NCBI GenBank assembly: GCA_028867435.1
Contig: JAGWGI010000005.1
Location: forward strand, 1 to 60,272
From: Candidatus Micrarchaeota archaeon
GTDB taxonomy: Archaea; Micrarchaeota; Micrarchaeia; Micrarchaeales; CABMGC01
DNA: 60,272 nucleotides
Direction of reading: 5' to 3'
Within the stretch, counting starts at the first letter, position 1; every line of letters starts with the position of its first letter. Under the pieces are notes generated by a model. That model was not told where the DNA came from and did no database searches. It saw nothing but the letters and a program-made list of their open reading frames with translations. The position numbers and the translations under genes are program-made. Shown here in pieces: positions 1 through 29,138 of this stretch.

Positions 1-1852
1 ACTAGCGGTGAGCAGGCGTCACCCGCTGTACTAAGCCTTACGGCTTTGCGGCGAGTTGTGTTTTTGATAAACAGTCGCTGTCCCCGAGTTAATGCTATCT
101 GCTCTTACTAAGTGCAGACATGGCTTATTGAAAACTTACGCCACTAACTTGCCGATTTCCCTAACCTTGGTTCTTCCCACACCCCTTGGCCTTTTCAGCC
201 AGCAGCACCTGTACTGGATCTAGGTACGGATTGACACGATCGTTGTTGATTCCCTTTTCACGGGCTCAGGAATTCAGGTATTTTAGTTCATTTAGCTGCT
301 TCTCCTCATAATGAGACTCCACAGCCATTTGCACTTCTTTTCAACCCTATCCCCAAGCGTCAGAAATCAACCTTGTGTTGCCACGCCTACGTGTCAAGCT
401 CCAGAATATTAACTGGATACCCTTTTGTACGCTAGTAATTAGCTGCGTACTTAGGACCGGCTAACTCCCCGCTGACAATCATTGCGAGGAAAACCTTGTG
501 CTTCCGGGGTAATTGATTCTCACAATTATATGCTATTACTAACACCAGGATTTTCTCAACTACACAGTCCATAGGATCGCAAGACCCTACTTCTAGCCGT
601 GTAGCACGCCCTCTTACCAGTACATTTAAACTCTAAGGTCTCGGTACATGATTTAGCCCCGTCCATTTTCGGAGAAGACACTCTCAATCGGTACGCTATT
701 ACGCGTTTTTTAAAGGGTGGCTGCTTCTGAGCCTACCTCCCGACTGTCTACGAGCATCTCCTCGTTTGATACACTTAATCACGATTTAGGGACCTTAACC
801 TTAGTCACCGACTTTACGGTCTCGTCGCACTAGCTTACCCAATGCGGCCGACTCCCGGAGTCTACGCAGCATATGCATTCGGAGTTTGACGGGAGGGAAG
901 AGCCTTTCGACTCCGCGCCCTCTAATCGGTCGCTCTACCGCATATGCAAGCTCGTCCGGAGCTATCCTAAAGATACTTCAGAGGGGACCCGCTATTGCCA
1001 TGTTCGAATGGTCTATCGCCCCTACCCGCAGCTCGCCCAACAGGACATGCCATGACAGGTTGCGGACCTCCAGCGAACATCAATTCGCCTTCGTCCTGGC
1101 CGCGCGTAGATCACAATGGCTTCGGGTCGTATAGTAGTGACTTAGGCACTTTCGTGCCCTGCGCCTCCTTGCGTGCGCGCACTCGCTTTCACTTCGCAGT
1201 AAAACTGCTTGCCACTCCAATACACTCCCTGGCTCTTGCTTCAAGAAGAAGGACAAAACACTGGTAGCACATGTCGCTTGTACCTTTCGATACTTCGCTT
1301 CCATATGCGTCAACCCTTCCATGCCTTGTCTTCTTGTAACCACCTAGTTTCAGATCTTTTCGCTCCCACGCGTGTGGGTGCTTTTCAGCTTTCGTTCGCA
1401 CTACTTGTTCACTATCGGTCTCTGGTCAATATTTAGGGTTGGGATTTAATGATCCCGTATTCGTTCGACGTATTAAGGCCGAACTACTCATACACGACAC
1501 AACTTGGCGCACTTATCCTACGAGGCTGTCACTCTCTATGGCGGTTCTTTCCAGAACCTTCGGATCATGCATCAAGCCTAAAAGTCGCACCACATCTCCG
1601 CACCAATTGCTTGGGGGATTCAGTTTGCCCTCTTCCGGTTTCACTCGCGTTACTTACGGAATCGATTTTCTTTCTTCTCCTGCGGGTACTAAGATATTTC
1701 AATTCCCCGCGTATGCGTGCGCCACTATTCATGGCGCATAATTCGGCAATCCCGGGTTCAAAGGTCGACATGCACCTACCCCGGGCTTTTCGCAGCTTGC
1801 CACGGCCTTCTTCGCTACCAGAGCCTAGCCATCCACTAGGTGGCTTATAATA
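1..1852 (-). rRNA. rrl: 23S rRNA, 5' portion (runs off the left edge of the window)
   Basis: Reverse complement carries conserved LSU motifs: AAGCCACCTAGTGGATGGCTAGGCTC near the 5' end, GAAATATCTTAGTACC, GACCGATAGTGAACAAGTA, GTTAATATTC, CCGTACC...CAGGTG, ACTGTTTATCAAAAACACA. The 5' end is approximate. Confidence 0.97.
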
Positions 1853-2022
1853 TGCAAGCTCACTTCTCCTCGAATCAATAGCCTATATGGCTATCTCACA
1901 AGTGCAAAACTGGTTGGCGTATTCTAAGATAGATACTTTTCACAAAGCGAAAGCTCTCGAGTATTACCCCTAGAAAGCTCAACCGGACATCAAAGCACTG
2001 ACAACTTATTAGGTAGGGAAGG

Positions 2023-4625: not shown

Positions 4626-4919
4626 CTAGGCCGCCTCCCTTTCCATGTCCGCAAGCTGCTTTCGCAAATCCTCTAGATGGGTCTCGGCAAAGAGCATGCC
4701 AAGAAGCTCCTCCGCCTTGTCATCACTCTCAATGAAATCCTTGATTGCCTTTTTAGGCATCGCCCTGTTGCTGCCCTTGTCCTGGAAAACAAAGCCGTTG
4801 CGGAACCAGAACTCATCGATCTTCCCTAGCCCTAAATTCCTGATCCTGCCAATGAGCTCCGAAATCTCCCTCTTGGTGATACTGTCGTCAAACTCGTTTA
4901 CAATAGTTGGCTCTTCCAT
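4626..4919 (-). CDS. hypothetical protein
   Basis: 97 aa ORF; ATG ~25 nt downstream of a TTTAAA box near 4942. Confidence 0.55.
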   Translation of the reverse strand: MEEPTIVNEFDDSITKREISELIGRIRNLGLGKIDEFWFRNGFVFQDKGSNRAMPKKAIKDFIESDDKAEELLGMLFAETHLEDLRKQLADMEREAA

Positions 4920-4981
4920 CAGACTATTCTTGTAGATGGACTTTAAATAATCCTACAGTCAAAATTGGATTGGGAGTTAGC

Positions 4982-5182
4982 ATGCAGATCATACCAGACC
5001 ACACACCGACCAACGCAATGCAGTTATCAGATAACGTTGATTGGATGATAAAGAAGCTGCGCAGGAACAGGGACGAGCTAATCAGGTTCAAAGTGGCGGA
5101 GATGGCGGCAAAAATGCTTCCCCGGCGCATGAACCACTCGCAGAGGATAAGGTTGCGCAGCAGGAGCTTTGCTGCAAACTAG
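4982..5182 (+). CDS. small basic hypothetical protein
   Basis: ATG at 4982 preceded by GGGAG; 66 aa, Arg/Lys-rich. Confidence 0.45.
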   Translation: MQIIPDHTPTNAMQLSDNVDWMIKKLRRNRDELIRFKVAEMAAKMLPRRMNHSQRIRLRSRSFAAN

Positions 5183-5194
5183 CTTTGTTTGGAT

Positions 5195-5254
5195 AAAAAG
5201 AAGGGAAGTATGGCAGGGATTAGGTGGGGACCAAAAACGCGAGCCATACTTCTT
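5195..5254 (-). ncRNA. candidate hairpin small RNA
   Basis: TTTAAA at 5282-5277, TA initiator at 5255/5254, perfect 10-bp stem GAAGUAUGGC (5252-5243)/GCCAUACUUC (5214-5205), 28-nt loop containing UGGUCCCCACCU, then CCUUCUUUUU. Confidence 0.5.
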
Positions 5255-5297
5255 ATACTACTGTATGTTTTTGAGATTTAAATACCTGTTGCTTATA

Positions 5298-5328
5298 AAC
5301 AAAATTAGTAATGCTTTTTGTTATTTTG
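5298..5328 (-). promoter_or_regulatory. putative operator CAAAATAACA-N17-TGTT upstream of the candidate sRNA TATA box
   Basis: Same half-site and spacing as 6431-6461. Confidence 0.5.
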
Positions 5329-5360
5329 TAAGATTCTTTCGACTGCAAGAATGGTAAAAT

Positions 5361-6395
5361 TTACCTGGTCGGAGTCCACTTTATGGTGTTGTAGACCTTC
5401 CTTGTGTCAAGGCTCCTAATTGGCAAATTTCCAACCAGCACCTCCTCTATCGCTCCATATGTGACCTTGGGCTTTTCGTTCGCCATGCACTTCTTGTAAT
5501 ACCTCACCCCGTTTCTATACGCCTGGTCAAGGTTGTCGAAAGCACCTATCGAGAAGAAGTCGAAGCTCCCCACCAGCTGGGATACGAGTATGTACCTGCT
5601 GACCAGCGAGTTCTCGTCATCAGCCTGGAATGCCTTTCTGCTCATCGCCGCATCCTCCTCAAAGCTTCTGGATATCACGTACTTTCCGAAGGTTGACATG
5701 AACCAGACGTTCTCCGGGGGCTTCATGACGGTGGTGAAACGCCTTATGTAGTTCATGCCCTCGAGCTTCTTGAAGTTGTATGCCACGGTGTTGAAGTGCA
5801 TGCCTAGCTGCCTCGAGAGCTCCTGGAAAGAGGCCCTGGAGTTAGTGTTTAGGATCTTTATCATCTCCTTGTATTTTATGGGCAGATTCAGCCTTTCAAG
5901 CAGCTCGTTTCTTAGCGGGAAGAATCCGAGCTGCCTGTGTGCAACCTCCGAGGCCTGCCATGACACCCCGTAATCCGCAAGCAGTATCTGCATGCTCTTA
6001 TCCCAATGTACGTATTCCTGCCTTGAGACCGCATTGGCGTATATAATCATCTCCCGCCCTCCCCTTAGGGATGCGACAAGCTGCGGCACATAAGAGCCAG
6101 AAAAGATCTCCTTTATGTACTTGTAGTCAGGTCTAGAGCTAAACCTCACAAGTATCAGGTGCGGATCAAGGAATCCCAGAGCATCCTCGTTGAGCTCGAG
6201 TGTGTATCCTATTCCAAGCTCCTTCTCCATCTTCTGCACCCTTTCGACCACCGACTGCCTGGAGAGGCCAAGGCTGCGCGAGATGCCAGATATGGAGCTG
6301 CGCGAATCTTCGGAGAGCATGCGCAGTATCCTTCTTGAAACCAGGCTGTATCTTTCGTTGAAATCGCTCCTAAACTCGTAATCTATCTGCTTCAT
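5361..6395 (-). CDS. Lrp/AsnC-family regulator with two tandem wHTH + ligand-binding modules
   Basis: RILRMLSEDSRSSISGISRSLGLSRQSVVERVQKME and MIKILNTNSRASFQELSRQLGMHFNTVAYNFKKLE. Confidence 0.85.
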   Translation of the reverse strand: MKQIDYEFRSDFNERYSLVSRRILRMLSEDSRSSISGISRSLGLSRQSVVERVQKMEKELGIGYTLELNEDALGFLDPHLILVRFSSRPDYKYIKEIFSGSYVPQLVASLRGGREMIIYANAVSRQEYVHWDKSMQILLADYGVSWQASEVAHRQLGFFPLRNELLERLNLPIKYKEMIKILNTNSRASFQELSRQLGMHFNTVAYNFKKLEGMNYIRRFTTVMKPPENVWFMSTFGKYVISRSFEEDAAMSRKAFQADDENSLVSRYILVSQLVGSFDFFSIGAFDNLDQAYRNGVRYYKKCMANEKPKVTYGAIEEVLVGNLPIRSLDTRKVYNTIKWTPTR

Positions 6396-6430
6396 GATTT
6401 TACTGCTCGGCCATTATATTTAGCTCTTTG

Positions 6431-6466
6431 CAAAATAACAATCTTTTTAGTAAAAACTGTTATTTT
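6431..6466. promoter_or_regulatory. palindromic operator between the regulator and the DMT transporter
   Basis: AAAATAACA (6432-6440) ... TGTTATTTT (6458-6466) with inner TTTTTA-G-TAAAAA symmetry; TTTAAA at 6475-6480. Confidence 0.6.
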
Positions 6467-6510
6467 TCGAGCAGTTTAAAAGGATGCGCTGAGATGTCAG
6501 TTCGAGCAGC

Positions 6511-7755
6511 ATGAAGATAACCACCAGGGCATATTCTTACATCATAATCTCGCTTTTGACTGGCGCGATGATGCCTATAATGCTGGTCTTTGCAAGATCC
6601 ATGAACATATACGAGTTCTTCATGTTCACGTACCTGATGAGCATGCCTTTTGCTTTGCTTCTCCCTAGCCTGACTAGGCAGCCAAACGAGCTGCGCTCAT
6701 ATCTTGGCGACCCCAAGAAGCTGGGGATAGCAGTTGCAGTAGGCCTTCTCAACTACGTTCCTATAGGCTTTGTGATACTCTACGCAGAGCACTCCGTAAG
6801 CGCCTCGCTCTCTGCAGTGGTCTTTAGGACCTTCCCGTTGCTGATGTTAATCTTCCTTCCCGCATTTCTAAAGGAGAAGCTGAGTGCAAAGCAGATAATA
6901 GCCCTCCTGCTCGCCTTCGCCGGAGTCTATATCGCGCTGAGCGCAGGCAGCGCTGGAGGCATACTTGCAAACCCAAACATATACGTGATAGCGCTGCTCG
7001 TAGCCTCCGCCTTCGCGTATGGCTTCTCTAGCATACTGGCAAAGAAGTACGTTTTCAACATCGGGGGCGGGATCGCAATCTTCAATCTCGCCGCATTCCT
7101 GCTCTTCTCCTCACTCTTTGTTATCACCGGTGCACACTTCTCGCCGATAAGCCTTGGCGCGATAGTGGCGATGCTTTTCATCAGCACAGCAAACAACATA
7201 ATAGGCACATACATGTACTACTCCGCGCTCAGGGTGCTCAAGACGACGCTAGTGACCAACATCTACTTCCTCTCTCCGTTCCTCACATTTCTCTTCGCCT
7301 TCCTGATACTCGGCGAGCCGATACTGCCGTACTACTTGGCAATTGCCGGTCTTGTAGCTCTTGGCCTGCTGATACAGAGAACCGACAAGCTTGGCGGCAC
7401 GTACGCACAGGGCAAGCACGCTGAACGCATAACAATATTTGACATAACCGGAGCATTCATCAACAGCGAGGAGCGCAAAATACGCGACGCGATACTAAAG
7501 GGGGGCAAGGTGCTGGCTATAAGGCTTGAGCTGCGTCAAAAAGAATGGGTTGAGAAGGCGATAGGGATGCAGGCCCACAGGCACGTTCATCTCTACACCC
7601 ATCTCCATTCTGCGATAAGGAGCGACGAGCTAACTTTCATAAGGGAGATAATGGGGATCACCCCAAAAGAGCTGGTGCTCATGAGTGCAGGGGACTCGGT
7701 TGAGTGCGAATCCGCGCTAAATGAGATAGCGGCAAGCGTGGCCCAAGCGCAGTGA
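6511..7755 (+). CDS. DMT/EamA family transporter with an extra C-terminal soluble domain
   Basis: ~10 TM segments in two EamA repeats (FLKEKLS, LILGEPI), then ~120 aa soluble tail. Confidence 0.85.
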   Translation: MKITTRAYSYIIISLLTGAMMPIMLVFARSMNIYEFFMFTYLMSMPFALLLPSLTRQPNELRSYLGDPKKLGIAVAVGLLNYVPIGFVILYAEHSVSASLSAVVFRTFPLLMLIFLPAFLKEKLSAKQIIALLLAFAGVYIALSAGSAGGILANPNIYVIALLVASAFAYGFSSILAKKYVFNIGGGIAIFNLAAFLLFSSLFVITGAHFSPISLGAIVAMLFISTANNIIGTYMYYSALRVLKTTLVTNIYFLSPFLTFLFAFLILGEPILPYYLAIAGLVALGLLIQRTDKLGGTYAQGKHAERITIFDITGAFINSEERKIRDAILKGGKVLAIRLELRQKEWVEKAIGMQAHRHVHLYTHLHSAIRSDELTFIREIMGITPKELVLMSAGDSVECESALNEIAASVAQAQ

Positions 7756-7832: not shown

Positions 7833-8540
7833 ATGGCAATAGAAAAGGTTCCAAAGGCCATAGCGCTGATTCCTGATGGGAACAGGCGATGGGCACTAGG
7901 CCACAAGCTCTCCATGCTAAATGGCTACAGCCTGGGTGTCAAGAAGTTCATAGACTTCAGCGAGTGGTGCAAGGACTACGGGGTCAAAAATATCACAGTG
8001 TGGGCATTTTCCACCGAGAACTTCAAGCGTCCAAAGCGCGAGATAGACGCGCTCTTCAATATATATGAGAGGGCTGCAAAGGATCCGGAAATGCTCCAGA
8101 GGCTGCAAAGGAACCAGACCAAATTCAACGTAATAGGGGACAGGAGCCAGCTGCCAAAAGGTCTGCGCTCAGCGCTCGAGAGACTTGAAAGGGAGACCCG
8201 CAACTGCACCGACAGGGTAATCAACATGCTCATAGGTTATGGCGGCAAGGAGGACATACTCCACGCAGCAAAGGAGTACGCAAGATCTGTCATTAAGATA
8301 GGCAAGGTTTTCACGCTCACAGATTCAAGCTTCAAGAAGTACTTGCGCTCATATGCGATACCTGAGATAGACTTTGTTATAAGGACATCTAGCGAGGAGA
8401 GAATATCGGGATTCCTTCCCTGGCAAATAAGCTACTCAGAGCTGTACTTTGCCGACAAGCTCTGGCCAGATTTCTCAAGGGAGGACCTGAAGAAGGCGCT
8501 AGCCGAGTATGGCAGGCGCTCAAGGAGATTCGGAACCTAA
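7833..8540 (+). CDS. uppS: cis-prenyltransferase (undecaprenyl diphosphate synthase family)
   Basis: IPDGNRRWA, WAFSTENFKRP, GYGG, IRTSSEERISGFLPWQISYSELYF, LWPDF, RRFG; start chosen from TATA spacing. Confidence 0.95.
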   Translation: MAIEKVPKAIALIPDGNRRWALGHKLSMLNGYSLGVKKFIDFSEWCKDYGVKNITVWAFSTENFKRPKREIDALFNIYERAAKDPEMLQRLQRNQTKFNVIGDRSQLPKGLRSALERLERETRNCTDRVINMLIGYGGKEDILHAAKEYARSVIKIGKVFTLTDSSFKKYLRSYAIPEIDFVIRTSSEERISGFLPWQISYSELYFADKLWPDFSREDLKKALAEYGRRSRRFGT

Positions 8541-10397: not shown

Positions 10398-11948
10398 TCA
10401 GACATTCTGCCTTATGCTCTTTAGCTCCTTCTTTAGCATCGCCCTGTTGATTGCCTCGAGCATCGCCTGCACGCTTGTTATCACAATGTCATAGCCCTTG
10501 GACTTTGCAACAGCAGAGCTTCCGCCTCCGTCTTCCACTTCCACTGTGACCTCGCACATTGCCTCAGAGCCTCCGGAAACTGCCCCTATCCTGTAGTCCT
10601 TAATCTTAAAGGTGTTATCCCAGGCGCCAGTCACATTCTTTATCGCCTTGAGGGCTGCATCCACTGGCCCTACACCGTCAGAGGTTCCAACGTAATCCTT
10701 GCCCCCGATATTTAGCTTCACGAAAGCGTACGGATTGTTGCCTATACCTGTGGTGACAGAGAATCCGGTGAGGTGTACCATGCGCTCAAACTGCCTAAGC
10801 GACATAACCTTCCCTGCTATCTCAAGAAGCTCCACTTCTGTGACTCGGCCCCCGGCATCCCCTATCGTCTTCACCTGATCTAGTATTAGTTTGGCCTGTT
10901 CCCTGTCTGGGGCTATTCCGTATTCTCCGAGCATCGCACTTACCCCATGCGCGCCAGCATGCTTGCCTGCATAGTACGTCCTGCTCCTACCCACATCCTC
11001 AGGCTTTATCGGCTCGTATGTAAGCGGATTGCTCAGAACCCCGTGAGTGTGTATCCCAGACTCGTGGGCAAAGGCGTTGTCCCCAACTATCGCCTTGTTG
11101 GGCTGGGGCCGTATCCCCACAAGGTTCGATACAAAAATAGAGGTCTCATAAATGCGGTTTAGCGCTATGCTGGTCTCATACTTTTCATTGAAGTTGAGAT
11201 ACGCAAGCGAGGCCGCAAGTTCCTCGAGCGATGTGTTTCCCGCACGCTCGCCTATTCCATTGATTGTTACATGAACCGACTGTGCGCCGGCTTCAAGCGC
11301 AGCGACAGAGTTGGCAACAGCCCATCCGAAGTCGTTGTGGCAGTGTATGCTTACGGGAAGACTGGTAATCCCAACTACATCCTTTGTTATGCTACTTATC
11401 TCTTGCGGCGAGGCTGTGCCCACGGTGTCTGGTATGTTCACCCTATCTGCGCCCACCTCTGCCACAGCCTTGTAAACCTGCCTAAGGAACTCCCTGTCGC
11501 TTCTTGTTGCATCCTCTGCCGAGAACTCAACATCAAGTCCAAGCGATTTGGCATAGCTTACCGCCTCCACCGCCTTTTCCAGAACCTGTTCACGCGTCAT
11601 CTTAAGCTTGAACTTTAGGTGAAGGTCAGAAGTCGCAATGAAAGTGTGAACGCTTCCTACCCCGACCTTTACGCACGCGTCTATGTCAGATTTTTCCGCC
11701 CTTGCAAGGCCGTAGATTTGCGCTGCAAGCCCTGCCTTGGCAATTAGCCCTACACCCTTCTTTTCCCCCTCTGATATTGCGGGAAAGCCTGCCTCTATTG
11801 CATTGACCCCCAGCCTGTTTAGCATCTGCGCTATCTGCAGCTTCTGCTCTGGGCGAAGCGCCACTCCAGGCGTCTGCTCACCGTCTCGCAGTGTGGTGTC
11901 AAAGATCCTGATTTTTCTAGCTTTCACGCTAATCCCTCCAAAATTCAC
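10398..11948 (-). CDS. leuA: 2-isopropylmalate synthase / citramalate synthase family
   Basis: FDTTLRDGEQTPG, FSAEDATR, PDTVG, HCHNDFG, GIGERAGN, HESGIH, GVGPVDAA regulatory domain. Confidence 0.88.
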   Translation of the reverse strand: MNFGGISVKARKIRIFDTTLRDGEQTPGVALRPEQKLQIAQMLNRLGVNAIEAGFPAISEGEKKGVGLIAKAGLAAQIYGLARAEKSDIDACVKVGVGSVHTFIATSDLHLKFKLKMTREQVLEKAVEAVSYAKSLGLDVEFSAEDATRSDREFLRQVYKAVAEVGADRVNIPDTVGTASPQEISSITKDVVGITSLPVSIHCHNDFGWAVANSVAALEAGAQSVHVTINGIGERAGNTSLEELAASLAYLNFNEKYETSIALNRIYETSIFVSNLVGIRPQPNKAIVGDNAFAHESGIHTHGVLSNPLTYEPIKPEDVGRSRTYYAGKHAGAHGVSAMLGEYGIAPDREQAKLILDQVKTIGDAGGRVTEVELLEIAGKVMSLRQFERMVHLTGFSVTTGIGNNPYAFVKLNIGGKDYVGTSDGVGPVDAALKAIKNVTGAWDNTFKIKDYRIGAVSGGSEAMCEVTVEVEDGGGSSAVAKSKGYDIVITSVQAMLEAINRAMLKKELKSIRQNV

Positions 11949-12000
11949 TCCCGATTAAACTTCTTATAGCTTCTCTACCAATTCACAGCTGGGTTGCCTA

Positions 12001-12927
12001 ATGGTTCCACTAATCCCAATACTCTACCTTATCTCCTTTAGCCTTCTGGTTTACAGGATAGCCAATATAACCTCGAAGAAGGAGGCTGCGATCCTTGCCG
12101 CATTCATAGTATTCGGTGCAGCTCTCGCCCTCTACCAGAGCACAAACGCGCTGCTCTTTGTCTCTATAGTCATCCTTTTCGATCTGATAACCGCAAAATA
12201 CGGCTCAAGGGAGGGCCTGTTCTTTGTTGTGCTCGGCTTTGCCTACTTCATAGTTTCGCTCTATAGCGGCATTGCAGTCTACCTAATAGCACAGGCGATG
12301 CTCCTAGGTCTTGCGCCTGATGCGATACTAAAGGGGCTCAAGGCGCATAAGGTATCTAGCAAGAAGACCGAGACAAGCAGGGACATAGTGCAGATAGCGT
12401 TCGGCATCCTAGTAATTGCTATGTTCCATTTCCTGCGCCCTGAGCTCTCCGAGTCAGTAATGATAACCCTGATACTTCTGGGCTACCTTGCAGTTAACTA
12501 TGGGATAGTTAGAAAGGAGACGAATCTGGCCAAGAGGCTCTACGCCCTCGAGCGCGAATATACCAGCCTTGGGGAGGGCGCTACATGGCTTGCTCTTGGA
12601 AGCCTTGCGGCAATAGGGTTTGTCTTCCACGTAAAGTACATGATGATAATCTTCTCCGCGATCTTCATTGCTGATGCCCTCGCCACTATAATAGGAATAA
12701 GGGCGAAGGGGATGAAGCTACCCTACAACAAAAAGAAGAGCGCCGCAGGGACAATAGCCTACTTTGCGGTAGTAGCGATAATCCCATATCTCCTCTACGG
12801 GGTCATCGCCCTTCCTGTTGCGATAATAGCCGCCTTCGTTGAGAGTCTCCCCTTAAAGCTTGACGACAACCTGAGCGTGCCAGTGGTGCTCGTGGTGCTG
12901 CACTTCCTGCTCAGGTTCCTCCAATAG
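12001..12927 (+). CDS. dolichol/phytol kinase-like membrane protein
   Basis: RDIVQI, ADALATIIG, LPYNKKKSAAGT, ESLPLKLDDNLSVP. Confidence 0.8.
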   Translation: MVPLIPILYLISFSLLVYRIANITSKKEAAILAAFIVFGAALALYQSTNALLFVSIVILFDLITAKYGSREGLFFVVLGFAYFIVSLYSGIAVYLIAQAMLLGLAPDAILKGLKAHKVSSKKTETSRDIVQIAFGILVIAMFHFLRPELSESVMITLILLGYLAVNYGIVRKETNLAKRLYALEREYTSLGEGATWLALGSLAAIGFVFHVKYMMIIFSAIFIADALATIIGIRAKGMKLPYNKKKSAAGTIAYFAVVAIIPYLLYGVIALPVAIIAAFVESLPLKLDDNLSVPVVLVVLHFLLRFLQ

Positions 12928-12945
12928 CGCGCTGCTCCTAAAAAG

Positions 12946-14166
12946 TTAATTTGTGTACCTTGTTGGCTGCAACATTGACAGTACATACGAATCGTCTTCG
13001 TTGCTAGCGAACAACACCGTTCTAAAACCGGCCTTAGATAGCAACTTTGTGAATGCCCATTCCGTGAACTTCTTTGACCGCGCAAGCAGTATGCGCTCTC
13101 CTTTTTCAAGGGATACCCTTCCAGATCCTATTTTGATTTCCATGTTCTTTTTGAGAACCATGCACATCTCAACTTGATATAATCTTTCGTTCCAAGAAAC
13201 ATCATAAACCGTGTCTGCTCTCCCGATCCCTATCCTAGCGGCCGTTAGGTAAACCAAGTCTGAAACATCTTTATTATTGTAGTGTGCGACTATCCTGGCT
13301 GTTCTTGCGACATTGGTTAATTCATTCGCCACTATCAAAAAGTCTTTTGACGACATCGATTCTTTGAAGTTTGTAAGTACACGATTCCTATCCGACTGGT
13401 TTCCCAGAGTATTTCCGAGGAAAAGAAGCAAATTTATCTCCCCCTCACCAGTTAAATCGTAAATCCGATCAGAAAAGTTGCCGTGCTCAAAGTCAAATTC
13501 TATCTTGTTGACTTTCAATCCCCCAATTTTTGACCTAACCCTCTCCCCAGCCAAATCGAGCATCGCCCTACTAACGTCAAGGGGGACATAAGCAAAGCCG
13601 AATCCTTTTCGTTTCAGCTCCTCCATTATCATTATTGCCGGTGCACCATTTCCACAGCCTATATCAACCACATTTATCCTACTGTCCTTAGGGAGGACAT
13701 TTATGAATTGGGTTATCCTAGAAATTATGAGCTTACGTTGTATTATGCTTATGTCCCCTTTTGACCCCACTCTATCCCAATTTGTTGCTCCCTCGGCAAG
13801 GTAAGCAAATTTAAGTGGTATCTCCCCCATGGTCCCCAAGGAAGTAAGCAGTTCAGCCTCCTGCCTTCTATTCAAAAAGCCAGAAGCTACACTGTTGCCA
13901 GATATATAATGTAAAGGTTTTATCTCAGGCTGAGCAATTAGCGGTAAAGATTCAGATATGTCTGCAAGTGCGATGCGTTTCTGGCCAAATACGAGATACA
14001 TCTTGATGTATCCCCTCTTGAGTAGCCACTTAATATGCGGAGTAAGTAATTGTCGAGATACATTCAACTCTTTGGCTATCCTGCTCTGGTAGGCATCGGC
14101 GGCACCAAGTTTCTTTATCATCTCCAATATCCTGAGCTTTATGCCGTCCAGTTTTGCAACTCGCAT
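12946..14166 (-). CDS. wHTH fused to an EgtD-like (Methyltransf_33) SAM-binding domain
   Basis: YQSRIAKELNVSRQLLTPHIKWLLKRGYI HTH; IPLKFAY, VDIGCGNG, YVPLDVS, LFLGNTLGN, QVEM, GERILLARSKKF. Confidence 0.8.
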   Translation of the reverse strand: MRVAKLDGIKLRILEMIKKLGAADAYQSRIAKELNVSRQLLTPHIKWLLKRGYIKMYLVFGQKRIALADISESLPLIAQPEIKPLHYISGNSVASGFLNRRQEAELLTSLGTMGEIPLKFAYLAEGATNWDRVGSKGDISIIQRKLIISRITQFINVLPKDSRINVVDIGCGNGAPAIMIMEELKRKGFGFAYVPLDVSRAMLDLAGERVRSKIGGLKVNKIEFDFEHGNFSDRIYDLTGEGEINLLLFLGNTLGNQSDRNRVLTNFKESMSSKDFLIVANELTNVARTARIVAHYNNKDVSDLVYLTAARIGIGRADTVYDVSWNERLYQVEMCMVLKKNMEIKIGSGRVSLEKGERILLARSKKFTEWAFTKLLSKAGFRTVLFASNEDDSYVLSMLQPTRYTN

Positions 14167-25199: not shown

Positions 25200-25277
25200 T
25201 GGTGGGACTGAGGGGATTTGAACCCCTGACTTGCTGGTTAAAAGCCAGCCACTCTGGCCAAGCTGAGTTACAGTCCC
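25200..25277 (-). tRNA. tRNA-Lys(TTT), CCA encoded
   Basis: GGGACTG...GCTGG-CTTTTAA-CCAGC...GGTTCAAATCC...CAGTCCC-A-CCA. Confidence 0.97.
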
Positions 25278-26749: not shown

Positions 26750-27694
26750 ATGACGAGAATATTAGTCACCGAACCGGAGTATTTCGATGAGGATGCAAGA
26801 AAGGAGCTGAGGAAGTCTGGCGAACTGGTCCTAAGGAGGCTTGGCAGGAAGCCGCTCGAGAAAATAATTCCTACAATTGATGTGCTTGTCGTAAGAATCG
26901 AGACCAAGGTCGACAGAAGACTGCTGGGCATGGCCAAACGGTTAAAGATAATCGGCTCAGCGACAACAGGCCTTGATCATATCGACCTGGAATTTGCAAA
27001 GGGCATGGGGATCAAGGTGATAAGCCTTCATGGGATTCACACTATCCCAACAGCAGAGCACACAATGGCGCTTATGATAAGCCTGTGCAGGAACATCCCG
27101 TGGGCACACATGAGCCTTAGCAAAGGCGCATGGCAGAGGCACAGGTTCATAGGCAGGGAACTTAACGGAAAAACGCTCGGAATAGTCGGACTAGGCAGAA
27201 TAGGAAAGCAGGTTGCAAAGTACGCGGTGCAACTGGGAATGAATGTCACGTACTATGACCCTAACGTTTTTCGGCAACCCCTAGCCAGGAAGATAACTTC
27301 GCTCCCAAAACTTCTAAGCGGCGCAGATATCCTAAGCATACATGCGAGCCTAACGAAAGAGACTAATGGGTTAATTGGCAGGAAAGAGATAAGCCAGATG
27401 AAGGAATCGTCACTGCTGATTAACACTGCGAGGGGCAAAATAGTAGATTACACTGCGTTGCTTGATGCCCTGGCCAAGCATGCAATAAGCGGTGCAGCTA
27501 TAGACGTATTCCCAAACGAGCCTCTTGAAAATCCGGCAGATCCAATAATCGCTTATGCCAGAAGACATCAAAACCTGCTTGTGACCCCGCATCTTGGGGG
27601 CTCAACAAGGGAAGCAATACACAGAGCAGGGCTTGAAGTCTCCACGAAAATAGGAATTGCACTGAAAGCAAACAGGCGCGAAGGAAAGCTCTAG
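26750..27694 (+). CDS. D-isomer-specific 2-hydroxyacid dehydrogenase (SerA-like, no ACT domain)
   Basis: GLDHID, TAEH, GIVGLGRIG, INTARG, DVFPNEP, TPHLGGST. Confidence 0.93.
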   Translation: MTRILVTEPEYFDEDARKELRKSGELVLRRLGRKPLEKIIPTIDVLVVRIETKVDRRLLGMAKRLKIIGSATTGLDHIDLEFAKGMGIKVISLHGIHTIPTAEHTMALMISLCRNIPWAHMSLSKGAWQRHRFIGRELNGKTLGIVGLGRIGKQVAKYAVQLGMNVTYYDPNVFRQPLARKITSLPKLLSGADILSIHASLTKETNGLIGRKEISQMKESSLLINTARGKIVDYTALLDALAKHAISGAAIDVFPNEPLENPADPIIAYARRHQNLLVTPHLGGSTREAIHRAGLEVSTKIGIALKANRREGKL

Positions 27695-27695
27695 T

Positions 27696-29138
27696 CTACT
27701 GTTCCGTATACTTCTCCTCAAGATACCTGAGGTACTTGTTTGGGTTGTATGTTTGCCTTATGGCATACTTTAGAAGATCCCGCGGAGCATATATGGCCCC
27801 GTACTTGTGTATTCTGTCCCTAAGCCACTGCTTAATCTCCCCGAATTCTCTTCCCTCTATGAGCTGGTCTACGTTTCCCATCTCTTCCCTGATAGCCGCC
27901 GAGATCATGTTCCCAAGCGTGTATGTCGGGAAATAGCCGAAAGATCCATCAGCCCAATGTATGTCCTGCAATACACCCACACTGTCGTTTTTCGGCTTGC
28001 TGCCAAAATACTCCACCGATAAATCGTCCCAAACCGAATGTAAATCCGAAACCGATATCTCGCCCGAAACGAGGTCCTTTTCTATATCGTAGCGCAGTTT
28101 TATGTGCTTGTCATATGCAAGCTCACCAGAGTCTATTCTAGCTGCGTTTTTGTCAGCCGCATTGAAATATCTATACAAGTCCTCTTCAGAACCGTTTATC
28201 TTTGCGTGTTTTTTGATTACCGGGTAAATCACCCTAGTAAAGCTCATGCTATGCCCAACCATCATCTCCCAGAACCTTGACTGCGATTCGTCTATAGAAA
28301 ATGAAGCCGCAGTGTAAACTGGCGTATCCCTGAGCTGCGGGTCGATGCCGAATGCATAAATTGCATGGCCAAGCTCGTGCATCTGGTCAAAAAATCTATC
28401 CCTGAACTTCTGCTTACCCCTGCCTGTAGTTATCCTGACATCGTTGGTGTCCAAAGACACCATGAAAGGATGTGCAGAAACACCCTTCACAAAGCTATCC
28501 TTTGGTATGTTCAGCATCCTCAGAAGCTCTTGCGAGATTTTGCGCATCGAAGTCTGGTTGCACTCCACAATCTCGACTGACGAATTCCAATGCATCTGGG
28601 TTTTTTCTGCTATCCTCTCGATCTTCGGAAGTATCTTGGCGAAGATAGCATCCATCTCCCTGACCGTCATATCCTCCTCGAACTGGTGCAGCAGGGCATT
28701 GTAAGGATGCGATTTGTAATCAAGCCTTTCAACAAGCTCTATTTGCAGTTCAACAGTCCTCTCTAGGTACGGCTTGAAGATGCCAAAATCCGATTTTTTC
28801 TTTGCCTCCTTCCATGCGACGTTTGCCTTCACCCTGCATACCTCTATCTCGCTGAGCAATTTCTCAGGTACTAGGCTGTAGTATCCCACTTCGTTCTTTA
28901 GCTCCGTGAGGATTCCCTCCTCCAAGGCATTTTTCCCCTTCAGATTTTTAAGATCACTTTGATAACCCAGCGCGATCCTCTTTTCAAGCACCGCAATGTC
29001 TCCGTATGCACGACCCCTTGCTTCAGCTCCCCCCGGCGGCATTTTCGACTCCTGGTCGCACATCATCACTCCAACTGCATGGTCTAGAGAATTTGAGATC
29101 TTCTGCCTGTCAAGAATTTTCTGGAGCCTCTTGTTCAT
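27696..29138 (-). CDS. M32 carboxypeptidase (Taq family)
   Basis: AHPF, DVRITT, HELGH, ESQSRFWE, GVLQDIHW, GYFPTYTLGN. Confidence 0.95.
   Translation of the reverse strand: MNKRLQKILDRQKISNSLDHAVGVMMCDQESKMPPGGAEARGRAYGDIAVLEKRIALGYQSDLKNLKGKNALEEGILTELKNEVGYYSLVPEKLLSEIEVCRVKANVAWKEAKKKSDFGIFKPYLERTVELQIELVERLDYKSHPYNALLHQFEEDMTVREMDAIFAKILPKIERIAEKTQMHWNSSVEIVECNQTSMRKISQELLRMLNIPKDSFVKGVSAHPFMVSLDTNDVRITTGRGKQKFRDRFFDQMHELGHAIYAFGIDPQLRDTPVYTAASFSIDESQSRFWEMMVGHSMSFTRVIYPVIKKHAKINGSEEDLYRYFNAADKNAARIDSGELAYDKHIKLRYDIEKDLVSGEISVSDLHSVWDDLSVEYFGSKPKNDSVGVLQDIHWADGSFGYFPTYTLGNMISAAIREEMGNVDQLIEGREFGEIKQWLRDRIHKYGAIYAPRDLLKYAIRQTYNPNKYLRYLEEKYTEQ

Follow-up and report, generated by a model that had tools for sequence, protein, structure and literature searches.

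A predicted small RNA family in Candidatus Micrarchaeota and its probable co-regulation with a double Lrp/AsnC-type regulator and an EamA transporter

Two questions are raised by a locus in the genome of a Candidatus Micrarchaeota archaeon: (i) does a short hairpin encoded beside an Lrp/AsnC-type regulator gene represent a small RNA (sRNA) gene in its own right and (ii) is that RNA under the same control as the regulator and the EamA-family transporter gene divergent from it. The locus occupies positions 5195–7755 of the stretch analysed here, 60,272 nt of contig JAGWGI010000005.1 (assembly GCA_028867435.1), which we refer to as the window. We think it rather likely that an sRNA is encoded at 5195–5254 on the minus strand, is co-controlled with the regulator and transporter genes via a common operator and acts through its C-rich loop. 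The comparisons described below point to a new sRNA family whose co-regulation with the regulator/EamA pair is probable but unproven. In the mechanism that we propose, the regulator or a close paralogue would bind both operators, its RAM-type domains would sense a small-molecule ligand and the ligand-responsive protein would jointly set transcription of itself, the transporter and the sRNA. The sRNA would act post-transcriptionally via the C-rich loop that it exposes, and base pairing of this loop with G-rich, Shine-Dalgarno (SD)-like sequences (GGUGGGGA) is the most plausible way. The features of the locus are:

5195–5254, minus strand: predicted sRNA gene, ~60 nt (inferred start ~5254; end within the T5 run 5199–5195)
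5243–5252, minus strand: 5′ arm of the stem, GAAGUAUGGC (sequence reading and fold)
5215–5242, minus strand: apical loop, 28 nt, a U-rich tract and then invariant GGUCCCCACCUAAUCCCU
5205–5214, minus strand: 3′ arm of the stem, GCCAUACUUC (sequence reading, fold and covariation)
5204–5195, minus strand: CCUUCUUUUU, directly after the stem
5277–5282, minus strand: TATA box TTTAAA of the sRNA promoter, 24 nt from TATA to stem
5292–5328, minus strand: putative operator site B, CAAAATAACA-N17-TGTTTATAAG, ending 9 nt upstream of the TATA box
5361–6395, minus strand: regulator gene, 344 amino acids (aa), two fused Lrp/AsnC-type modules, each with a helix-turn-helix (HTH) and an alpha-beta domain
~6413–6422, minus strand: putative TATA box of the regulator, TAAATATAAT, inferred from position only
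6431–6467, plus strand: putative operator site A, palindrome CAAAATAACA-N17-TGTTATTTTT, between two divergent TATA boxes
6475–6480, plus strand: TATA box TTTAAA of the exporter promoter, 7 nt past the operator
6511–7755, plus strand: EamA/DMT transporter gene, 414 aa, ATG at 6511, with a C-terminal soluble extension of ~120 aa

The motif copies, TATA boxes, 10-bp stem and T-run that the initial annotation had read from the sequence are all present at these positions. In site B, read on the minus strand, CAAAATAACA (5328–5319) is followed by 17 nt, TGTT (5301–5298), 15 nt and TTTAAA (5282–5277); in site A, on the plus strand, CAAAATAACA (6431–6440) is followed by 17 nt, TGTT (6458–6461), 13 nt and TTTAAA (6475–6480). 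The position of the putative regulator TATA box implies that the regulator mRNA would be leaderless or nearly so.

The hairpin RNA and its relatives

The minus-strand hairpin folds with a predicted energy of −17.3 kcal/mol (z −4.33), and none of 200 shuffled sequences does as well; the plus strand gives −22.8 kcal/mol (z −2.73), a value reached by 3 of 200 shuffles. Downstream of the orthologous regulator in G006, a genome of the same genus, the promoter and hairpin recur; the loop there is near-identical, and two changes in the stem are compensatory. The RNA is a single hairpin of 10–12 bp with a loop of 24–30 nt, in which a U-rich tract is followed by the near-invariant UCCC(C)ACC and then by another C-rich block. 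Conservation of the loop exceeds that of the stem: GGTCCCCACCT is identical in all five genus copies and TCCCCACC is invariant in nine copies from three genera.

Compensatory changes in the stem, which the initial annotation had suggested seeking in the flanks of orthologous regulators, are found at 5 of 12 pairs among five species, with 98.2% of alignment cells paired. The corresponding figures for nine copies are 7 of 11 pairs and 97.9%, and for 30 distinct copies (31 matches) 8 of 11 pairs and 99.1%, values that none of 500 shuffles reaches; slid controls pair at 32–52%. The 31-match alignment was fitted to the covariance model, which favours pairing, and the hand-checked MAFFT alignments of the five species and nine copies agree with it. 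The wobble pairs among the copies (six G-U cells and one U-G) would be mismatches on the opposite strand. A TATA-like hexamer lies 21–25 nt before the model start in 28 of the 30 copies, and by eye the other two have TATTTAAG there; 17 of 30 have a run of at least four T within the last 45 nt examined. Stem covariation, promoter spacing and the occurrence of the RNA in 27 of 118 genomes support the proposal that the hairpin is an sRNA gene, and 5195–5254 is best read as a real, independent one, with a predicted BRE (transcription factor B recognition element)/TATA promoter and oligo-T terminator of its own.

The distribution was established with three covariance models, R1 built from 2 sequences and R2 and R3 extended. 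The window matches at 5184–5255 on the minus strand with E-values of 2.0e-18 (R1) and 8.4e-14 (R3). R1 finds the RNA in 5 of 7 genomes of the genus, that of the window (G000) included, at E ≤ 5e-7, and 54 other genomes give only three matches at noise level; the weak R1 matches in G033, G034 and G056 (E 0.03–0.45) were dropped as noise-like. R3 recovers it in the 27 of 118 genomes of the taxonomic family and in none of 74 sister-family genomes. The carriers, by genus, are:

g1, the genus of the window: 4 of 6 genomes, and G000
g4: 13 of 13 genomes
g18: 4 of 4 genomes
g12: 2 of 2 genomes, three copies each
g8: 1 of 2 genomes
g43: 1 of 1 genome, two copies
g39: 1 of 12 genomes

So far as detected by these models, the RNA family is confined to one family of Candidatus Micrarchaeota. 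Among 4227 Rfam models, only rRNA and tRNAs match the window at the gathering threshold, and the interval 5100–5400 gives nothing at E ≤ 10. DPANN archaea have tiny genomes with few recognisable regulators, and a covarying, promoter-bearing RNA family is a concrete, testable object for post-transcriptional regulation in this lineage.

Two other readings of the RNA were rejected. A small peptide is incompatible with the missing ATG in G003, G002 and G004 and the broken frame in G006, and a C/D-box or H/ACA guide with a 60-nt RNA that has no UGAUGA, no CUGA, no ACA after the stem and only a 3-bp inner helix.

Further hairpins may exist that the models do not capture. R1 and R2 missed hairpins downstream of regulators in loci L015, L017, L028 and L029. 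A loose scan of 29 regulator downstream regions (stem of at least 7 pairs, CCCACC in the loop) picked out 7 on the sense strand and none on the antisense strand, with a background of 0.042 per 300 nt in G000; the criterion was picked after the cases had been seen, and these hairpins are suggestive only. With L015, L028, a copy on contig C17 and G041 included, MAFFT misplaced the stems, and no model was built from these alignments; one alignment (A5) was also discarded, as a mixture of both strands and noise. We also note a second sRNA-like unit in G000 (L062, C17 ~61622–61725, plus strand), between tRNA-synthetase-like and Lon-like genes, that consists of the TATA box GCTTTATAAAGG, ~22 nt, a 14-bp stem, the loop CAUAUUCUUUUACCUUCCCCACC and a T-rich tail; R2 scores it at 10.1 bits and R3 does not match it.

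A palindrome common to two promoters

Site A is a near-perfect palindrome between the regulator's own and the exporter's divergent TATA boxes, and the putative operator adjoins the BRE on either side. Considered alone, the left 10-mer is unremarkable in the window: at no more than one mismatch it has 6 matches, where 4.45 would be expected and 32 of 100 shuffles have as many. Only two of these matches are exact, and a third (6458–6467, minus strand, 1 mismatch) is the palindromic partner within site A. As a whole, site A fits the consensus at 13 of 14 positions, and no shuffle exceeds 11. In a genome-wide motif scan of the kind proposed in the initial annotation, the arrangement AAAATAACA-N15-19-TGTT occurs four times in the whole 1,054,622-bp genome and its reversed control not at all; three of the four are sites A and B (A counted on both strands), and the fourth, with N16, lies elsewhere. 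The consensus CAAAATRACA occurs 9 times in the genome for ~4.8 expected from base composition. Three of these are in AT-rich promoter contexts: two are sites A and B, and the third lies on contig C11, where it belongs to the promoter of a paralogous regulator/EamA pair.

The suggestion that the two promoters share one architecture holds across the genus. A palindrome CAAAANNNCA-N17-TGNNNTTT(T/A)G precedes both the sRNA TATA box and the regulator/EamA divergent promoter in all five RNA-bearing genus members, whichever of the two genes flanks the RNA; in the genus the putative operator is a 37-bp palindrome ending 7–9 bp upstream of the TATA box. At the sRNA promoter the form CAAAANNNCA-N17-TGNNNTTTAG is present in 5 of 5 copies (the right half of the window's being degenerate), with a 9-nt gap to the TATA box. 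The regulator/EamA intergenic regions of the genus have CAAA(A/T)NNNCA-N17-TGNNNTTTTG, which matches 12–13 of 14 consensus positions where shuffles reach at most 11–12. The layout of sites seen in the window recurs in G006, G003, G002 and G004, and a degenerate pattern finds 13 matches and 1 control match in seven genus genomes, both promoters being included in G002, G003, G004 and G006. Half-site variants partly track genomes: the two sites of G003 share TGCACTTT, the two of G002 share ACACA, and in G000 and G006 both sites have CAAAATAACA.

Gene order at the locus is rearranged within the genus. The RNA invariably has the regulator/EamA pair on one side and the orf97/orf169 genes on the other, and the pair is inverted as a unit between species, so that the RNA follows the regulator stop codon in G000 and G006 and the EamA stop codon in G003, G002 and G004. 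The inverted segment corresponds to window positions 5361–7755 (compared with L038 in G003, L039 in G002 and L040 in G004); its flanks, the sRNA with orf97/orf169 on one side and uppS with DUF2070 on the other, are fixed. The operator stays with the sRNA despite the inversion.

Other genera put the sharing to a stronger test, with sites of the same form at sRNA genes that are not linked to a regulator. CAAAATRACA-N17-TG gives 10 matches and 1 control match in five genomes, and it lies upstream of the TATA box at unlinked sRNA copies on G017 C30, G152 C2, G051 C14 and G068 C24, with no regulator or EamA gene closer than 1.5 kb to any of them. The unlinked operator-bearing copies are in g43, g12 and g39. 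In G051 (genus g43) the regulator/EamA promoter, on a contig separate from the sRNA, has CAAAATAACA-N17-TGTTATTTTT with a 7-nt gap to the TATA box, and the gap is 7 nt at the sRNA promoter too. Because the G051 sRNA copy is unlinked and the regulator/EamA promoter elsewhere in that genome has the same site, a regulon is favoured over mere gene order. The operator pattern argues for a small regulon with an operator in the regulator's own promoter, and the common operator makes this a hypothesis open to test.

Several points weigh against such a regulon, or against assigning it to this regulator. (i) The operator is missing from most sRNA copies: there is none at the sRNA promoter in g4 (13 of 13 genomes), g18 (4 of 4), g8 and the main g12 copy, and in these the sRNA is far from any regulator or EamA gene. 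(ii) The paralogous regulator of the C11 pair is 52% identical to that of the window and its promoter has CAAAATAACA-N16-TGTCACTTTT, which makes the identity of the binding protein ambiguous. (iii) The right half-site of B, TGTTTATAAG, is degenerate, fits the consensus poorly and is missed by the degenerate pattern. (iv) That pattern was built from the sites that it counts and the related genomes are not independent, so its counts are descriptive. (v) G003 is an unpublished genome; without it the operator is present in 4 of 4 genus copies. (vi) All seven sequencing runs covering the locus are of DNA.

The first of these points limits the three-part module of regulator, exporter and sRNA proposed in the initial annotation, which would apply within genus g1 and does not extend to g4 or g18, where operator and neighbouring regulator are both lacking. 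The g4 sRNA promoters have a different conserved upstream element. Since most family members have no operator or nearby regulator, the RNA does not generally depend on this regulator, and the RNA family, as judged from these genomes, is older and wider than its regulator link.

The strongest alternative accepts the sRNA as real but has the palindrome bound by the C11 paralogue or by an unrelated transcription factor, with adjacency reflecting gene order within one genus. The half-site at the C11 pair, the 12 matches to the regulator family in the 1-Mb G000 genome, the restriction of sRNA–regulator adjacency to g1 and the many sRNA copies without an operator would all fit. On the other side, each of the five genus genomes, and G051 too, has the palindrome in the divergent promoter of the regulator itself, which is a classic sign of autoregulation, the site remains with the sRNA where the regulator/EamA pair is inverted and half-site variants partly track within genomes (G003, G002, G000 and G006). 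On this evidence we judge the alternative unlikely and retain control by the regulator of the window, or its close paralogue, as the preferred reading. The conserved palindrome in its own promoter suggests that this protein may bind DNA sequence-specifically, with modulation by an amino-acid-like ligand. If the link to the sRNA is true, symbiont-like archaea with 1-Mb genomes would layer RNA control over metabolite-sensing transcription factors; if it is false, the RNA family keeps its use as a new annotation and could become an Rfam entry.

The initial annotation further proposed that the regulator co-activates the exporter and the sRNA. The operator common to both promoters is consistent with joint control; the sign of that control is a different matter, as repression of a divergent EamA gene is described for a bacterial Lrp/AsnC protein (PMC8707732, abstract). 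That protein, PA2577 of Pseudomonas aeruginosa, is encoded divergently from the EamA-like transporter PA2576 and, according to the abstract, binds the shared intergenic region. The likeness to the present locus lies in the divergent Lrp/AsnC regulator and EamA transporter pair and, as predicted here, in binding of the regulator between the two genes. PA2577 differs in being a single-module repressor, and the abstract mentions no sRNA, whereas the window has a fused double module, promoters of the archaeal TATA/BRE kind and, before a predicted small RNA, another promoter that bears the site. The Lrp/AsnC–EamA pair is an already known arrangement, to which the window adds a new RNA family and what we take to be a new instance of known regulatory logic.

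Other sites of this form precede other genes. In genus g12 (L017 in G017 and L095 in G152), an operator and a TATA box are followed by a longer hairpin with a C-rich loop directly downstream of a regulator gene; this candidate starts with GGUAUGGCG like the window stem, its loop holds CAUCCCUACCCRCCC and all models miss it. An operator and TATA box precede a gene for a 102-aa glycine-rich, membrane-like protein at L088 (G017 C8) and L092 (G152 C10), and a third, perfect operator site in G004 (L096, C3) lies with a TATA box before an unnamed protein-coding open reading frame (ORF). The L088, L092 and L096 genes are possible further regulon members. The C11 pair (~10950–13301) includes a divergent 418-aa EamA gene and has no sRNA downstream.

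What the RNA may do

Control of sRNAs by transcription factors is known among bacteria and in some archaea. Reported archaeal examples, under nitrogen control, are sRNA154 and sRNA162 of Methanosarcina mazei, which are said to have been found by RNA-seq and tested genetically. The window RNA resembles them as a small RNA with its own archaeal promoter and a place in a putative regulon; it differs in being unrelated in sequence and lineage and known from comparative genomics. In the literature searched (supplements and subscription journals lay outside the coverage), we found no sRNA from Micrarchaeota or other DPANN archaea and no archaeal Lrp–sRNA–EamA module.

Our best guess, at about even odds, is that the sRNA pairs with G-rich, SD-like sites. 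The 16S rRNAs of the genus end in GAUCACCUCA(U), and CACCU is common to this 3′ end and the sRNA loop; the invariant loop segment UCCCCACCU would pair with AGGUGGGGA. Firmicutes RsaE/RoxS-type sRNAs are short hairpins in which UCCC motifs in C-rich loops pair with SD regions. The loop of the window RNA likewise holds UCCCC and UCCCU, together with CACCU as in the anti-SD, but it belongs to a different domain of life and has no homology to them in the Rfam search.

Searches for targets weigh against this guess, and the trans-acting role given to the sRNA in the initial annotation did not gain a target from complement, SD-motif, RNAduplex or 5′-region searches. The loop complement AGGTGGGGA occurs in the genome at about chance frequency. 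Exact 9-mers complementary to the loop have 48 matches, three of them in a three-copy repeat and one before a 127-aa ORF, with no convincing target. SD-like and loop-complement motifs precede starts in 6–14% of their occurrences, without contrast in this crude ORF-based test. In a genome-wide RNAduplex scan the antisense locus is the sole outlier, and predicted pairing of the sRNA with the regulator and EamA 5′ regions of five genomes has z-scores of −0.3 to +1.1. GGTGGGG is absent from the 16S rRNAs of relatives and from the part of the 23S rRNA gene in the window.

The main alternative to pairing at SD sites is that the RNA binds a protein, for example by titrating a C-rich or U-rich RNA-binding protein of the KH-domain or Sm-like type. 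The U-rich tract and C-rich blocks of the loop are conserved in sequence and not just in composition, and the mRNA searches returned nothing convincing, both as expected of a protein ligand. The CACCU common to loop and anti-SD suits pairing equally well, and we consider protein binding improbable, with pairing to SD-like sites kept as the working model.

That model can be joined to the operator in a more ambitious circuit, in which a metabolite-sensing double-Lrp protein would control an efflux transporter and an sRNA via one operator and the loop would imitate the anti-SD core CACCU and mask G-rich ribosome-binding sites. We put this forward tentatively, as a possible and rather doubtful whole. 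If true, it would couple metabolite export to translational reprogramming, and DPANN archaea would have their first described circuit from a transcription factor to an sRNA, as well as their first functional sRNA family.

One segment of G000 has an unusual relation to the loop. At L099 (C11 15541–15571, minus strand), a TATA box downstream of another regulator paralogue, the third and 30% identical, is followed by AGGUGGGG and AGGGAUU. These two sequences are complementary to the C-rich blocks of the sRNA loop, but in swapped order. As a partner of the sRNA this segment was rejected: it is not conserved in G006, and the only other match in the genus lies within coding sequence.

Gene neighbourhood, regulator and transporter

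In the window the hairpin is flanked by convergent ORFs, there is a T-run on each strand and the plus strand can fold too; on these grounds the hairpin might be merely a terminator or 3′ untranslated region (UTR) element of the convergent genes, or the 5′ leader of the next gene. This reading is very improbable. A scan of 4800–6700 for terminators (short GC-rich stem, loop of 3–8 nt, T-run) finds 0 sites, whereas the hairpin has a sequence-invariant loop of 28 nt and, in almost all copies, its own TATA box at a fixed distance. The upstream gene differs among species, and the downstream neighbour is convergent in 3 of 5 genus genomes, with neighbours varying in other genera, all of which speaks against a 3′ or a 5′ UTR. 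The ORF that converges on the sRNA in the window (4982–5182, plus strand, 66 aa) may not be a gene: neither Pfam nor NCBIfam matches it, and tblastn finds no counterpart in the related loci examined.

For the regulator, the initial annotation's assignment to the Lrp type is supported by the folds. The Pfam HTH_AsnC-type model (PF13404) matches two stretches (residues 21–57 and ~178–220) at 59.9 bits, well over the cut-off of 27, and PDB sequence matches are to archaeal and bacterial Lrp/AsnC proteins, in both halves. The Pfam RAM model (AsnC_trans_reg, PF01037) is not reported at E ≤ 0.01, and the NCBIfam Lrp-type equivalogs score 16–46 bits against cut-offs of 125–250. The RAM-type alpha-beta sandwich is recognised by fold only, in an AlphaFold2 (AF2) model from 20 orthologues (pLDDT 93.3) compared by Foldseek: taken by half, ~140–150 residues align to Lrp/FFRP chains with TMt of 0.65–0.80. 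Among these relatives, the archaeal proteins LrpA (1i1g), PH1519/FL11 (2e1c), ST1022 and halophilic Lrp (8q90) have the HTH_AsnC and RAM-type domains in common with it; the window protein differs in having two tandem modules in one 344-aa chain, where the classical protein is a single module of ~150 aa and forms dimers or octamers. On the structural model it is a fused double Lrp/AsnC relative and not a classical 150-aa Lrp.

That the protein is instead an enzyme of the siroheme-decarboxylase NirDL/AhbAB type, with the palindrome unrelated to it, is the least probable reading of all: the best full-length Foldseek match is indeed NirDL (4ch7, E 2e-11, TMq 0.56), and these enzymes (4ch7, 4czc) have the same fused two-module Lrp-like architecture, a point against a regulator, but identity is ~10–12%, the AhbB model reaches 15.6 bits where its cut-off is 125, HTH_AsnC is well over its cut-off twice, the family has 12 members matched in a 1-Mb genome and the context, a conserved divergent pairing with a transporter gene across a palindrome, is regulatory and not that of haem biosynthesis.

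The family to which the double-Lrp regulator belongs is also found beside a repeat. Three near-identical copies in G000 (C13 ~7231–7680, C13 ~27461–27910 and C23 ~8068–8520) each adjoin a gene for a 450–480-aa HTH_AsnC-containing paralogue, and each comprises a TATA box, AGGUGGGGAG, a 32–33-aa ORF, a small Cys/His-rich ORF and a ribosome-binding-like site, GGAGGUGGGGGC.

The transporter belongs to the DMT superfamily, as the initial annotation had it, and is of the EamA type: PF00892 EamA matches the 414-aa protein at E 8e-21 in two stretches, in agreement with the two EamA repeats (~10 transmembrane helices) of such transporters, and the TIGR00950 and YddG models fall far under their cut-offs. 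A divergent EamA gene lies beside 13 of 17 loci with a regulator at least 45% identical to that of the window, one of the four exceptions being at a contig edge. The soluble extension of ~120 aa (residues ~295–414) has no family match and is kept in the C11 paralogue and in orthologues.

Two further features of the window and its genome may be recorded. The window begins inside a 23S rRNA gene (1–1860, minus strand), and the G000 assembly contains no 16S gene. The tRNA-Lys gene at 25200–25277 (minus strand) has its 3′ CCA encoded.

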